Positions 40,846 through 42,573 of a stretch of 64,000 nucleotides of DNA are shown here, piece after piece. The DNA is from an uncultured Rhodospirillales bacterium (GTDB taxonomy: Bacteria; Pseudomonadota; Alphaproteobacteria; ATCC43930; CGMCC-115725): NCBI GenBank assembly GCA_903828515.1, contig CAIKMD010000007.1, forward strand, positions 1,208,706-1,272,705. Reading direction: 5' to 3'. A model generated the notes under the pieces. That model did not search any database, was not told the DNA's origin, and saw only the letters and a list, made by a program, of their open reading frames with translations. Numbering within the stretch: position 1 is the first letter of the stretch; each line of letters starts with the position of its first letter. Made by a program: the position numbers and the translations under genes.

Positions 40846-42573
40846 GGCACGCTTGCCAATAACGGAACATTTACGTTCGACCAGAACGTCAGCACCTTTG
40901 CCGGCACGCTCACGGGCAGCGGCTCGCTTCTGGTCCAGGGCGGCGGCACGCTGAGCCTGTCGGGTGCGAATACCTTCACCGGCGGCACGACGATCAGCGG
41001 CAGCACCGTATCGATCTCGGCCGATAACAATCTCGGTTCGTCCTCCGCGCCGGTCACGCTGGCGGATGGCGCGGCCATCGCTTTCACGTCGGGCATGGTC
41101 TTCGACCACAACATCACGGTGGCCGGCGATCCGACCTTCGACGTGATGAGCGGCCAGACGGTTTCGATCACGACGACGATCGCGGACGGGACCTCCGCCG
41201 GCGACGTGGTGCTGAGCGGCGGCGGCACGCTGGTTCTGGACGGCACGAACAGTTATTCCGGCGGCACCGTGATCGACGGCGGGACGCTGGAACTCGGCAA
41301 TGCCAGCGCGGCGGGCACCGGGTCGGTCTCGTTTGCCTCCGGTGCGGCAGCGACCTTGCGCATCGACGGCACCACGATGCCGACCAATGAGGTCGACGGC
41401 TTCGTCAGCGGCGGCAAGGTGATCGATCTCGCCAATCTCAACATCACGTCGGCGACGCTCGGTGGCGGCAATGTTCTTACCCTCGCCGAGAGTGGCGGTG
41501 GCTCGGTCACGCTGCAGCTCGATCCGTCGCACGATTACAGCGGTTCGAGTTTCACGGTCCATCCCGACGGCGCCGGCGGTACCGACCTTTCGGTCGTCTG
41601 TTATCTGCGCGGCACGCATATTCTTGCCGAAGGCGGCGAGGTTACGGTCGAGGAACTGAAGATCGGCGACCGTGTCATGACGGCGTCGGGTGTGTTGAAG
41701 CCAGTGACCTGGATCGGGTTCGGCTGCGTGATGGTCGTGCCGGGACAGCGGATGAACGCGACGCCGATCGTCGTCCGCCGCGGCGCCTTTGCGGAGAACG
41801 TGCCGCGTCGCGATCTCTACGTCACCAAGGGCCACTCGTTCTATTTCGATGGCGCGCTGATTCCGGCCGAGTATCTCATCAATGACCGCTCGATCCTGTG
41901 GGACGACGCGGCGCGGGTCGTCGACTACTTCCATGTCGAGCTTGAGGATCACGACGTCCTGCTGGCCGAGGGCGCGCCTGCGGAAAGTTACTTCGATGAC
42001 GGCAATCGCGACCTGTTTCAGAATCATAATCCGGGCTGGACCCGCGAGACAGTCGCACAAGCCCGCTACGCGCCGGTGCAAACGGGTGGCGAGATCGTCG
42101 ACCGTGTCTGGCACCGTTTCTCCGACCGGGCGGGCCTGCCCGCTGTCGAAACGACGCATGATCCCGACCTGCATCTTGTCGTCGATGGCCAATCCATCCG
42201 GCCGACGAAGATCGTCGACCGCATCTACACCTTCGCGATCGACGGCGTTCCTTCGGGAGCGATCTTGAAATCGCGGGTCTGCGTGCCGTCGGCGCTCGGC
42301 GCCGCGCGCGATCCGCGCCGGCTTGGCGTCGGCTTGGCAAAGCTCGTGCTGCGCCAGTCCGGTATCGTGACCCAGATCGGACCCGAGGCACCTTTCTTCG
42401 AACGCGGGTTCCACAAGGATGAGGGCGGCTTCCGCTGGAGCGATGGCGACGGCGATCTGCCCGCCCAGCTCTTTGCCCACATGACAGGCGCCTTCGAGAT
42501 CGAGGTCCATATCCTCCATCTCGCCGCGTACCCGATTGCCCCGATGGACATTCCCGCCCGCAACGCGGGTTAG
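38260..42573 (+). CDS. Giant repeat protein: AIDA/TibA-type strand-loop-strand repeats + PATR repeats + C-terminal Hint (bacterial intein-like) domain + unknown tail; no beta-barrel translocator
   Basis: 1437-aa ORF whose ATG overlaps the heptosyltransferase stop (ATGA). See the sub-features. High GC3 in this frame; the long antisense ORFs are Arg-rich artefacts. Confidence 0.9.
   Translation: [1437 protein letters not shown]
40846..41370 (+). other. PATR-type (autotransporter-associated beta-strand) repeat region
   Basis: [71 protein letters not shown]. This is the classic G-GTL-L-G-N-TY-GGT-I--GTL pattern. Confidence 0.75.
41599..42030 (+). other. Hint / bacterial intein-like (BIL, Hint_2-type) domain
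   Basis: Starts at Cys1114 ([28 protein letters not shown]...PVTWIG). Block-B-like TKGH ([13 protein letters not shown]), block-F-like [25 protein letters not shown], and an ending ...QNHN followed by Pro. Confidence 0.8.
42031..42570 (+). other. Uncharacterised ~180-aa C-terminal region downstream of the Hint domain
   Basis: [30 protein letters not shown]...[23 protein letters not shown]...; I recognise no family. Confidence 0.5.

Follow-up and report, generated by a model that had tools for sequence, protein, structure and literature searches.

The 1437-aa protein encoded at 38260..42573 carries at residues 1114-1243 what profile matching, fold prediction and conservation identify as a genuine Hint_2 domain, that is, a B-type bacterial intein-like (BIL) domain without the intein C-terminal motif. 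Together with a linker and a ~160-aa tail, this domain forms one conserved C-terminal cassette of ~320 aa (residues 1114 to about 1430). We consider it probable that the domain is autoprocessing and that cleavage at Cys1114 would detach the N-terminal passenger, with neither splicing nor Asn cyclisation. The features discussed below, all located in the window (the whole stretch of DNA analysed, 64 kb), are:

35951..36754, + strand: FkbM-family methyltransferase gene, first of the apparent operon (Pfam Methyltransf_21, E=1.7e-20)
36905..38263, + strand: TibC/Aah-type autotransporter O-heptosyltransferase (BAHT) gene (NCBIfam TIGR04414, E=1.4e-196; Pfam TibC_1st and Glyco_transf_9)
38260..42573, + strand: whole gene for AIDA-like passenger, Hint_2 domain and C-terminal tail, 1437 aa
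38260..41598, + strand: passenger, residues 1-1113, with strand-loop-strand (AIDA / O-heptosylation target) repeats followed by PATR repeats
41596..41601, + strand: predicted scissile bond Val1113-Cys1114, Cys1114 being the putative Hint nucleophile (Cys in 329/329)
41599..41988, + strand: Hint_2 (B-type BIL) fold, residues 1114-1243 (PF13403, AlphaFold2 and Foldseek)
41824..41835, + strand: block B, Thr1189-Lys-Gly-His1192 (TxxH), from conservation and hhalign
41932..41988, + strand: block F/G equivalent, His1225, Glu1227, His1231 ... Ala-Pro-Ala-Glu1242-Ser1243
41989..42090, + strand: conserved linker, residues 1244-1277 (YxDDGNRxLFxNxN.GW...), holding His1256-Asn1257-Pro1258 (42025-42033)
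42091..42570, + strand: tail domain, residues 1278-1437, with one helix (1278-1290) and a beta-sandwich (about 1305-1420)

Identity and boundaries of the Hint domain

The HMM comparison with Hint_2 (PF13403) proposed in the first-pass annotation gave a match far beyond chance (E=5.7e-35; score 121 bits, cut-off 28.4), in which positions 1-146 of the 147 in the profile are aligned to residues 1113-1247, and among the Hint-type Pfam models Hint_2 is the only one strongly matched. The AlphaFold2 (AF2) model places Hint strands across residues 1114-1242 with pLDDT >86, the last of them at 1239-1242 (APAE). Foldseek matches of this fold are BIL and mini-intein structures (6y75, 6tmm, 2lwy and 6riy, E from 5e-5 to 4e-4; for 2lwy, E=3e-4 and TM 0.73), and a sequence search of the PDB with the cassette profile returned block A of 2lwy as its sole match (E=0.018). 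The proposal of a Hint/BIL domain of mini-intein size (130 aa) thus stands on a near end-to-end profile match, a predicted fold and its structural neighbours, and the ORF translation bears out that there is no homing-endonuclease insert.

In tail-less Hint_2 proteins, similarity stops at query residue 132-154; these proteins share '...AEGAPxES[FY]' and diverge afterwards, ...APxES[FY] being seen in Hint_2 proteins of Ruegeria and Sinorhizobium. When a mini-intein is aligned by hhalign, its terminal Asn falls opposite Ser1243 in a weak match (E=0.022). We place the end of the fold at Glu1242-Ser1243 ("APAES"), which would occupy the place of the intein His-Asn in a register taken from this weak match and from indirect boundary evidence.

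Hint, linker and tail as one cassette

A search with Hint and tail together returned 698 matches, of which the best 120 cover 85-99% of the query and lie at or near the C-terminus; overall identity among cassette relatives is 45-55%. The tail alone retrieved 1586 representative homologues. Among the best 143 of these, the tail is C-terminal in all (143/143) and a Hint domain lies 16-24 aa upstream in 136, the remaining seven being 155-250 aa long, too short for an upstream Hint and probably fragments. Judging from these searches, the tail appears to co-occur obligately with its Hint subfamily. AF2 packs both domains as one body (pTM 0.74) with pLDDT >94 in the tail beta-sandwich, and the linker is the least confident part of the model (pLDDT 61-76, ~61 at His1256-Asn1257). 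No family match to the tail was found in Pfam (E<=5 over 55 members) or NCBIfam, and no significant structural match by Foldseek (best E 0.075 in the PDB and 0.017 in BFVD). A pre-Hint element (GF..D.IDL ... DGxGGT), considered as a further part of the cassette, occurs in only 50 of 289 relatives and therefore falls outside it.

Passengers joined to the cassette include adhesin repeats, RTX/serralysin, subtilase, reprolysin, GH113, GH16, collagen, Calx-beta and acid phosphatase, and some cassette-bearing relatives have RTX plus a serralysin C-terminal domain. A hydrophobic N-terminal stretch is absent in 70 of 72 complete cassette genes according to a crude hydrophobicity scan. The cassette is the sole element common to hundreds of proteins with extracellular-type passengers and no Sec signal. 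At least eight copies are found in the genome of Acidisphaera sp. S103, and close relatives are encoded on small plasmids in Gluconobacter and Acetobacter strains that can be cultivated. Cultivable carriers include G. oxydans 621H (plasmid protein WP_080504714.1) and A. pasteurianus 386B (three genes on an 11-kb plasmid).

Passenger, operon and genomic neighbourhood

The passenger has nine AIDA matches (1.7e-38) and two PATR matches in Pfam, along with 17 TIGR04415 target repeats in NCBIfam (6.4e-57), and is predicted to be a beta-helical adhesin-like scaffold. Because these 17 repeats are accompanied immediately upstream by the TIGR04414 TibC/Aah heptosyltransferase gene, the scaffold is very probably heptosylated; the stop of that gene overlaps the start of the AIDA-Hint-tail gene (ATGA at 38260-38263), so that both are translationally coupled. 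Elsewhere, the element that closes an AIDA-repeat scaffold is an autotransporter barrel, a set of RTX repeats or a Hint_2 domain. In the 1437-aa protein, Pfam gives no match to the autotransporter beta-barrel (PF03797) at E<=0.1 and no HemolysinCabind match indicative of RTX nonapeptide repeats. A Sec signal peptide is likewise missing from the protein: the ORF is not extendable upstream and, in a crude hydrophobicity scan, its N-terminal maximum is 1.75 versus 2.8 for a control signal peptide. The Hint-tail cassette here stands in the place of the barrel of the AIDA-like passenger. Two of these observations go beyond the first-pass annotation, namely that the tail is a conserved domain and that the protein has neither signal peptide nor autotransporter barrel.

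The 1437-aa protein is recorded identically on 10 contigs that, in the places shown, derive from at least three samples, and an independent contig (locus L001) has a matching gene order around the FkbM-family methyltransferase gene. The TibC plus AIDA-Hint-tail operon is found again in a Stellaceae MAG (locus L005), where a 75%-identical BAHT homologue is followed by two AIDA-Hint-tail genes. In the window, the gene downstream of the AIDA-Hint-tail gene encodes a MarR regulator and no immunity-like gene follows; the partners of the nearby HlyD-family genes are an MFS pump and an RND pump, not an ABC exporter. To survey the neighbours, ORFs were called at 79 genome loci and clustered all against all, and no conserved secretion partner, immunity gene or chaperone emerged across them. 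The commonest neighbour family, MFS transporters, is present at 9 of the 79 loci, and the others are metabolic genes.

Predicted cleavage at Cys1114

The residues listed by the first-pass annotation read exactly as claimed: Cys1114 is TGT at 41599-41601, TKGH occupies 1189-1192 and the block F-like stretch is in place. In 329 distinct relatives, Cys1114 is invariant, block B has Thr in 324 and Ser in 5 with His1192 in 328, and the block F/G equivalent has H1225 in 329, E1227 in 327, H1231 in 326 and E1242 in 328, position 1243 being Ser in 307 and Thr in 22. In addition, hhalign pairs TKGH of block B with TKDH of Npu DnaE. Family-wide homology begins sharply at Cys1114, and the junction reads Val-Cys-Tyr here versus [LPVIA]-Cys-Phe in the family. 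Self-cleavage at Val1113-Cys1114 is predicted because selection on the nucleophile and on block B is absolute; the earlier suggestion that such a cut would free the repeat scaffold is the natural prediction from these counts (Cys 329/329, Thr/Ser 329/329, His 328/329).

In the sequence of events that we propose, the adjacent TibC-type enzyme would O-heptosylate the passenger (residues 1-1113) in the cytoplasm. At Cys1114, an N-to-S acyl shift would convert the Val1113-Cys1114 bond into a thioester, presumably with the help of Thr1189/His1192 and of the invariant cluster formed by His1225, Glu1227 and His1231, and water or another nucleophile would resolve this thioester, detaching the passenger from the Hint-tail cassette. 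Neither protein splicing nor an Asn-cyclisation step would be involved, and both the place and the timing of the cut are predictions. Since reviews report that B-type BILs also cut their own C-terminus by an atypical reaction (PMC5874633, PMC7765530), a C-terminal cut somewhere after Glu-Ser may occur as well. Most plausibly, and this is a guess, the cassette would also serve export, targeting or retention of its passengers in the place of the barrel; we infer an export role purely by reasoning, because no secretion machinery linked to the gene is present in the 64-kb window or at the 79 related loci.

A degenerate or structural Hint without chemistry, whose cassette would serve only in folding, export or anchoring while the protein stays intact, is unlikely in our assessment. 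Such a cassette would fit the modelling of both domains as one body, and cleavage in cassette members is a prediction. However, Cys in 329/329 and His in 328/329 at 45-55% identity are hard to explain without catalysis. A -1 residue that varies (L/P/V/I/A) and a homology that starts at Cys also speak against this reading.

We would likewise give little credence to a reading in which something other than water attacks the thioester and the Hint-tail is a bacterial counterpart of Hedgehog Hog that anchors the passenger, and/or a Sec-independent export signal. The beta-sandwich tail might then present a nucleophile such as a lipid of the envelope (e.g. a hopanoid polyol), a sugar of the LPS or an amine of the peptidoglycan, and resolution of the Cys1114 thioester would tether the passenger, which has neither barrel nor signal peptide, covalently to the cell surface; instead of this or in addition to it, the cassette might be the recognition signal of an undescribed Sec-independent export route used by hundreds of Acetobacteraceae proteins. 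As in Hedgehog, a C-terminal unit made of a Hint domain starting with a nucleophilic Cys and an extra C-terminal region follows a variable N-terminal 'cargo', which is released by cleavage (predicted here), and there is no C-terminal Asn chemistry. The relationship, however, is one of the Hint superfamily only, two of 55 members matching Pfam Hint (PF01079) at no better than E=0.2, and the cassette has a 160-aa beta-sandwich tail instead of the short sterol/adduct-recognition region (SRR) by which Hog directs its N-terminal domain to a lipid, no fixed residue at -1 comparable to the Hog Gly-Cys-Phe junction and no evidence of adduct transfer.

Cleavage of the RTX protein FrpC ('clip-and-link') yields a reactive acyl species transferable to another nucleophile (PMC7078468). 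FrpC and the cassette proteins have in common a self-cleaving internal module and, as its setting, Sec-independent secreted repeat proteins (both predicted for the cassette proteins), but no homology. Fold and chemistry are unrelated, an Asp-Pro bond being cut in FrpC in a Ca2+-dependent reaction that passes through an anhydride and not through a Cys thioester.

The His-Asn dipeptide and other readings of the domain

According to the first-pass annotation the domain ends in His-Asn, followed by Pro and not by Cys/Ser/Thr, and cyclisation of Asn1257 would free the tail. The dipeptide is present as claimed (42025-42030, LFQNHN and then P), so the listed residues are sound; the ending is not, given that the last strand is at 1239-1242 and the profile ends at residue 1247, which leaves His1256-Asn1257 in the linker, 14 residues beyond the end of the fold. 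Among 323 aligned relatives, His1256 is found in 4 (~1%), two of which are the 1437-aa protein itself, and Ala takes its position in 238. As far as alignments tell, the His-Asn is a chance dipeptide in the linker, coincidental as a domain ending. Comparative support for Asn cyclisation is absent because the domain, as a B-type BIL, lacks the C-terminal motif of inteins and the His-Asn is not conserved.

This makes an A-type-like BIL, in which His1256-Asn1257 would cyclise to a succinimide and cut off the tail in addition to cleavage at Cys1114, an improbable reading, although His-Asn-Pro is literally there, Asn1257 itself is kept in 263 of the 323 relatives (81%) with Ser or Thr next in 54%, and B-type BILs are able to cleave at either end (PMC5874633, PMC7765530). 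The 19% of relatives without Asn1257 keep Cys1114 and block B invariant, the similarity of tail-less Hint_2 proteins stops at ...ES[FY], ahead of the dipeptide, and the tail is conserved in lockstep with the Hint, unlike a disposable or variable C-extein.

Very improbable is a polymorphic toxin in which the Hint would be a 'releasing peptidase' freeing the tail as a C-terminal toxin, as in Rhs, MafB or CdiA-type proteins. Many repeat-scaffold polymorphic toxins do place HINT just before the C-terminal toxin (PMC3482391), and this protein, too, has a long scaffold of repeats as its passenger. The polarity is nevertheless reversed: conservation lies in the C-terminal domain (40-50% identity in hundreds of proteins), and what varies is the N-terminal part. 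The MarR regulator downstream in place of an immunity-like gene, neighbour families that recur at 9 of 79 loci at most and the multiple copies in Acidisphaera sp. S103 point the same way, and Pfam PT-HINT reaches E=0.078 in 1 of 55 members versus 1e-41 for Hint_2.

A canonical (mini-)intein splicing itself out of a host protein can be practically dismissed: in spite of Cys1, TxxH, an intein-like block F (DH...G), the mini-intein size and mini-inteins among the Foldseek matches, the fold is closed by Glu-Ser and not His-Asn, Cys/Ser/Thr is missing at +1 (in structural terms this is Tyr1244, and the residue after Asn1257 is Pro1258), Hint_2 alone is strong among Hint-type models, and no conserved host protein is seen, the N-side being unrelated between relatives and the C-side co-varying with the Hint.

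Relation to known systems and significance

BIL domains were reportedly described in 2003 by Amitai and colleagues and, to our knowledge, no role for them in bacteria has been established since. In the searchable literature we found no experiments on the 1437-aa protein or any tail-bearing relative; on Hint_2, Acetobacteraceae Hint domains or a type I secretion link, what turned up was limited to reviews of a generic kind and a table of Pfam enrichment.

B-type BILs correspond to Pfam Hint_2 (Amitai et al. 2003, Dassa et al. 2004, summarised in PMC4031507, PMC7765530, PMC5874633). They are without the intein block G/His-Asn motif (PMC4031507, PMC7765530, PMC9185962) and their cleavage is uncoupled from splicing (PMC4031507, PMC7765530, PMC5874633). 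The domain described here is a further B-type BIL of this known but functionally unstudied kind: the profile match is full-length over 130 aa, Cys1 and TxxH are present with no His-Asn block G, the host proteins are variable, apparently extracellular and alphaproteobacterial, and end cleavage without splicing is expected. The cassette subfamily adds the linker and an uncurated ~160-aa tail, whereas the C-tails of Hint_2 proteins in Rhodobacterales and Sinorhizobium are unrelated and ~60 aa long.

With AIDA-I and TibA (PMC4358343), the protein shares strand-loop-strand AIDA repeats (17 TIGR04415 matches here), PATR repeats and an adjacent, translationally coupled TibC/Aah-family heptosyltransferase; it is not a type Va autotransporter because signal peptide and beta-barrel translocator (PF03797) are both absent, the Hint-tail cassette being found at the C-terminus instead. 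With A-type BIL and pretoxin-HINT domains (2lwy; MafB, Rhs, CdiA; PMC3482391) it shares the fold and an occurrence in secreted repeat proteins. Those domains keep the C-terminal His-Asn, followed by a variable toxin and immunity pair, while the cassette has an unconserved His-Asn, a conserved C-terminal domain and no immunity gene. Unlike type I secretion substrates, it has no RTX nonapeptide repeats and no linked ABC transporter plus membrane-fusion protein. It is devoid of a signal peptide, and its tail might or might not act as an uncleaved C-terminal secretion signal.

The locus is an unusually clean test case, combining AIDA-like, predicted heptosylated cargo, absence of signal peptide and barrel, and invariant catalytic residues. 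The tail is most likely the key to the function of the cassette's Hint subfamily and, with at least 1586 representative clusters, merits its own family entry. An export tag or a Hedgehog-like transferase, if true, would represent a new Gram-negative principle for surface protein display; a cassette that merely clips its passenger would be one more B-type BIL.

On the opposite strand of the same gene, a 922-aa antisense ORF (39751-42519) with an Arg/Ala/Gly-rich translation was set aside as resembling the spurious antisense ORFs of GC-rich DNA.

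The Hint_2 gene and its operon

The Hint domain under study belongs to an adhesin-like protein encoded next to a heptosyltransferase gene, in the setting listed here.

Features in and around the adhesin operon (window coordinates, strand where assigned, description)
35951-38263, +, FkbM-family methyltransferase gene (first) and TibC-type heptosyltransferase gene, directly upstream of the adhesin gene
36905-38263, +, TibC/Aah-family heptosyltransferase (TIGR04414, E=1.4e-196), immediately upstream of the adhesin gene
38260-42573, +, ORF of the adhesin-like protein, 1437 aa, from translation of the window
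28895-29944, ORF carrying PF13400, a TadE/G-like domain of Flp pilus assembly (E=1.2e-12), some 9 kb ahead of the adhesin operon
42655-45783, EmrRAB-like efflux operon: MarR, HlyD-family membrane-fusion protein and MFS pump
35-9212, MdtABC-like efflux operon: membrane-fusion protein, two AcrB-family RND pumps and outer-membrane factor

Translation of 41599-42090 agrees exactly with the peptide quoted in the first-pass annotation, with the Cys1114 codon at 41599-41601, TKGH at residues 1189-1192 and LFQNHN followed by Pro. The Hint_2 family proposed there also proved right when compared with PF13403: residues 1113-1247 cover profile positions 1-146 of 147 (E=5.7e-35), a resemblance that goes beyond a chance pattern. 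The identical 1437-aa protein is recorded on ten contigs, at least three of them from separate samples (ENA ERZ27313605; Logan ERR4194716 and ERR4195074), which rules out an assembly chimera. Most of the adhesin gene is also covered by an antisense ORF of 922 aa (39751-42519, -), but its translation is rich in Arg, Ala and Gly, so that it resembles the spurious antisense ORFs frequent in GC-rich DNA and does not look like a gene.

Residues 1-1113 hold nine Pfam AIDA repeats, 17 TIGR04415 "O-heptosyltransferase target" repeats and two PATR repeats. At 38260-38263 (ATGA) the end of the heptosyltransferase gene and the start codon of the adhesin gene overlap, an arrangement that points to translational coupling and leaves no room for a longer N-terminus. 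The operon is conserved, since in a Stellaceae MAG a 75%-identical TibC gene is followed by two AIDA-Hint-tail genes. Classical AIDA/TibA systems are not known to include a methyltransferase partner. Although its passenger and glycosylation partner resemble those of AIDA-I, the protein does not belong to the type Va autotransporters: the barrel (PF03797) is absent from its 1437 aa and no signal peptide is found at its N-terminus.

A passenger-only search showed that AIDA-repeat scaffolds carry three alternative C-terminal ends, namely barrel, RTX repeats or Hint_2, the last in about 30 of the top 120 matches, including Gluconobacter sphaericus and Acidisoma silvae proteins. Some AIDA-repeat/Hint_2 proteins (P0267, P0274, P0286, P0292, P0327, P0344, P0361, P0362 and P0379), for example in G. 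sphaericus and G. kanchanaburiensis, have PF13692 (Glyco_trans_1_4) between repeats and Hint; judging from this domain order, the modifying enzyme appears to be part of its own substrate. The flanking genes are ordinary chromosomal ones (MarR, EmrAB-like pump, RND pump, oxidoreductases, CLC channel), and the efflux operons, considered as a type I protein exporter, were rejected as their parts are MFS-type and RND-type pumps.

Catalytic residues

Catalytic positions are near-totally conserved among 329 distinct relatives.

Conservation of Hint positions in 329 distinct relatives
Cys1114, 329/329
Thr1189, 324/329, plus 5 Ser
His1192, 328/329
Asn1208, 329/329
His1225, 329/329
Glu1227, 327/329
His1231, 326/329
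Glu1242, 328/329
Ser/Thr1243, 329/329

A chemically inert, purely structural Hint domain is hard to reconcile with a Cys kept in 329/329 at about 50% overall identity, and we regard it as improbable. Foldseek confirms the Hint fold of the predicted structure, with matches to Tetrahymena BIL2 (6y75/6tmm, E=5e-5), a Clostridium thermocellum BIL (2lwy, E=3e-4, TM 0.73), several mini-inteins and one Vint domain. Reviews describe B-type bacterial intein-like domains (BILs) as possessing every intein motif but the C-terminal one, with cleavage uncoupled from splicing (PMC4031507, PMC7765530, PMC9185962, PMC5874633), and the motif profile of the studied domain agrees with these descriptions. The finding is real and the domain belongs to an already known class, Hint_2 / B-type BIL.

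End of the Hint fold

The first-pass annotation had the domain end in His1256-Asn1257, with cyclisation of Asn1257 cutting off the tail. The fold ends instead at Glu1242-Ser1243, as five lines of evidence indicate: the Pfam limit, AlphaFold2 strands, tail-less relatives, hhalign and conservation. The PF13403 profile is exhausted by residue 1247. In the AlphaFold2 model (residues 1094-1437, 55-sequence alignment, mean pLDDT 85.8) the last Hint strand is 1239-1242 (APAE), followed by a short helix (1247-1252), and His1256-Asn1257 falls within the lowest-confidence stretch (pLDDT about 61-76). Matches to Rhodobacterales and Sinorhizobium Hint_2 proteins stop at query residue 132-154 of 324, that is, residues 1245-1267; two of these proteins, compared over their whole length, both contain "...AEGAPxES[FY]" and diverge completely after it. 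A weak hhalign alignment (E=0.022) of the family profile with a hand-entered sequence of the Npu DnaE mini-intein sets TKGH opposite TKDH, a 12-residue query segment opposite DHNFALKNGFIA, and Glu1242-Ser1243 opposite the penultimate residue and terminal Asn of the intein; this register is the sole one agreeing with the remaining evidence.

In an alignment of 323 relatives, Ala occupies position 1256 in 238 cases and His in 4, two of the latter being the studied protein itself; Asn1257 is kept in 263 (81%), and position 1258 is Ser in 131, Thr in 45, Pro in 34 and Ala in 34. With the His-Asn pair beyond the fold end and its His unconserved, Asn1257 cyclisation is unsupported and, in our estimate, quite unlikely.

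In the 329 relatives an invariant Glu-Ser/Thr (Glu1242-Ser1243 here, 41983-41988) occupies the intein His-Asn position, and the tail-less Hint_2 proteins from Ruegeria and Sinorhizobium likewise have Glu-Ser there. The invariant hydroxyl residue standing where inteins carry Asn is a candidate second nucleophile, for instance in the "atypical" cleavage at the C-terminus that B-type BILs reportedly undergo.

A cassette of Hint, linker and tail

A search that used residues 1094-1437 as query found 698 proteins. For each of the top 120 the alignment spans 85-99% of the query, with 45-54% identity, and in nearly all it ends within about 30 residues of the C-terminus. Conservation sets in at Cys1114; the 20 residues ahead of it vary, with L, P, V, I or A at position -1. 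When only the tail (residues 1270-1437) served as query, a search of 1.84 billion proteins gave 1586 representative clusters at E<=1e-3. In the top 143 hits the tail is C-terminal (median 7 residues beyond), and 136 have a Hint domain 16-24 residues upstream. The other seven, sequences of 155-250 aa, have no room for one and are probably fragments, so no tail without Hint was found among these 143. By these alignments, Hint and tail are the two halves of one larger conserved cassette.

AlphaFold2 predicts the tail with high confidence as a helix (1278-1290) and a beta-sandwich (about 1305-1420, pLDDT >94). Neither Pfam nor NCBIfam recognises it, even when 55 members are compared at E<=5, and it has no significant structural neighbour in PDB or BFVD. 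The linker (residues 1244-1277, 41989-42090) is predicted at low confidence and is among the best conserved stretches, its consensus being Y-R-D-D-G-N-R-W-L-F-x-N-A-N-x-G-W with many columns >95%; the studied protein deviates with F1245 for Arg, D1251 for Trp and H1256 for Ala.

The plasmid collection gave 207 matching records, of which 58 span 80% or more of the cassette and the rest match Hint alone, so by sequence match the tail is carried by some Hint_2 proteins only. A short tail-less protein of Sinorhizobium meliloti pSymB (WKL29651.1, locus L086:2273-3130) starts with the twin-arginine-like signal RRHFLGLTAAAAARIAA, which suggests that other Hint_2 subfamilies are exported by a classical route, in contrast to the signal-less subfamily with the tail.

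Passengers and proposed mechanism

Passengers are highly diverse, extracellular-type N-terminal parts: AIDA repeats, RTX repeats with a serralysin C-terminal domain, subtilase and reprolysin-like peptidases, GH113, GH16 and GH114 glycoside hydrolases, acid phosphatase, VWD, Calx-beta and collagen repeats, a GTA TIM-barrel domain, right-handed beta-helix and glycine-rich low-complexity regions. In relatives such as P0007, P0013, P0015, P0022 and P0044, a mostly poly-glycine/GGGGGY passenger is followed by a short conserved "NxGNGLVTIxL" and the Hint Cys. A crude hydrophobicity scan found no hydrophobic N-terminal stretch in 70 of 72 complete genes; in the two exceptions, one stretch is Hint block A itself and the other lies 62 residues in.

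Domain identity, boundaries, the invariant catalytic set and architecture are shown for the studied protein. As the most likely mechanism, we propose that Cys1114, aided by Thr1189 and His1192, would turn the Val1113-Cys1114 peptide bond into a thioester, whose resolution by water or another nucleophile would part the heptosylated passenger from the Hint-tail cassette. Since the cassette is the sole feature common to these signal-less, extracellular-type proteins and sits, in the studied protein, where the autotransporter barrel would be, it is our opinion that it may also act in export, targeting or retention.

The polarity, variable N-terminal cargo and then conserved Hint plus extra domain, is that of Hedgehog Hog domains and opposite to that of polymorphic toxins, with HINT ahead of the variable toxin (PMC3482391; PMC2362128). 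Given this reversal, many copies per genome (Acidisphaera sp. S103 accounts for 8 or more of the top 79 loci) and the lack of an immunity gene, a polymorphic toxin is very improbable. In the 79 loci there is no immunity-like or secretion gene beside cassette genes, and no neighbour family recurs, MFS transporters being the most frequent (9/79). A true intein, lacking block G, a +1 nucleophile and a conserved host protein, can practically be dismissed; splicing is neither possible nor expected.

No account of an obligate link between Hint and an uncurated tail domain, of missing Sec signals in cassette proteins or of barrel replacement on a TibC-glycosylated AIDA scaffold turned up in the literature we searched, and all three are worth recording. 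Were the cassette an export signal or a Hedgehog-like transferase, its importance would rise sharply.

The family is centred in Acetobacteraceae (Rhodopila, Acidisphaera, peat/soil MAGs) and Stellaceae and is already widespread in databases as "Hint domain-containing protein". This is the sole annotation of the more distant cassette-bearing genes (28-40% identity) located on plasmids of Acetobacter, Gluconobacter oxydans 621H, Rhizobium rhizogenes, Cupriavidus, Microvirga and Methylosinus. The 11.1-kb plasmid Apa386Bp4 of Acetobacter pasteurianus 386B (locus L084) has three separate genes so annotated (L084:837-2378, L084:5450-6886 and L084:9287-11038) amid toxin-antitoxin and integrase genes, and the match covers the tail domain in at least one of them.
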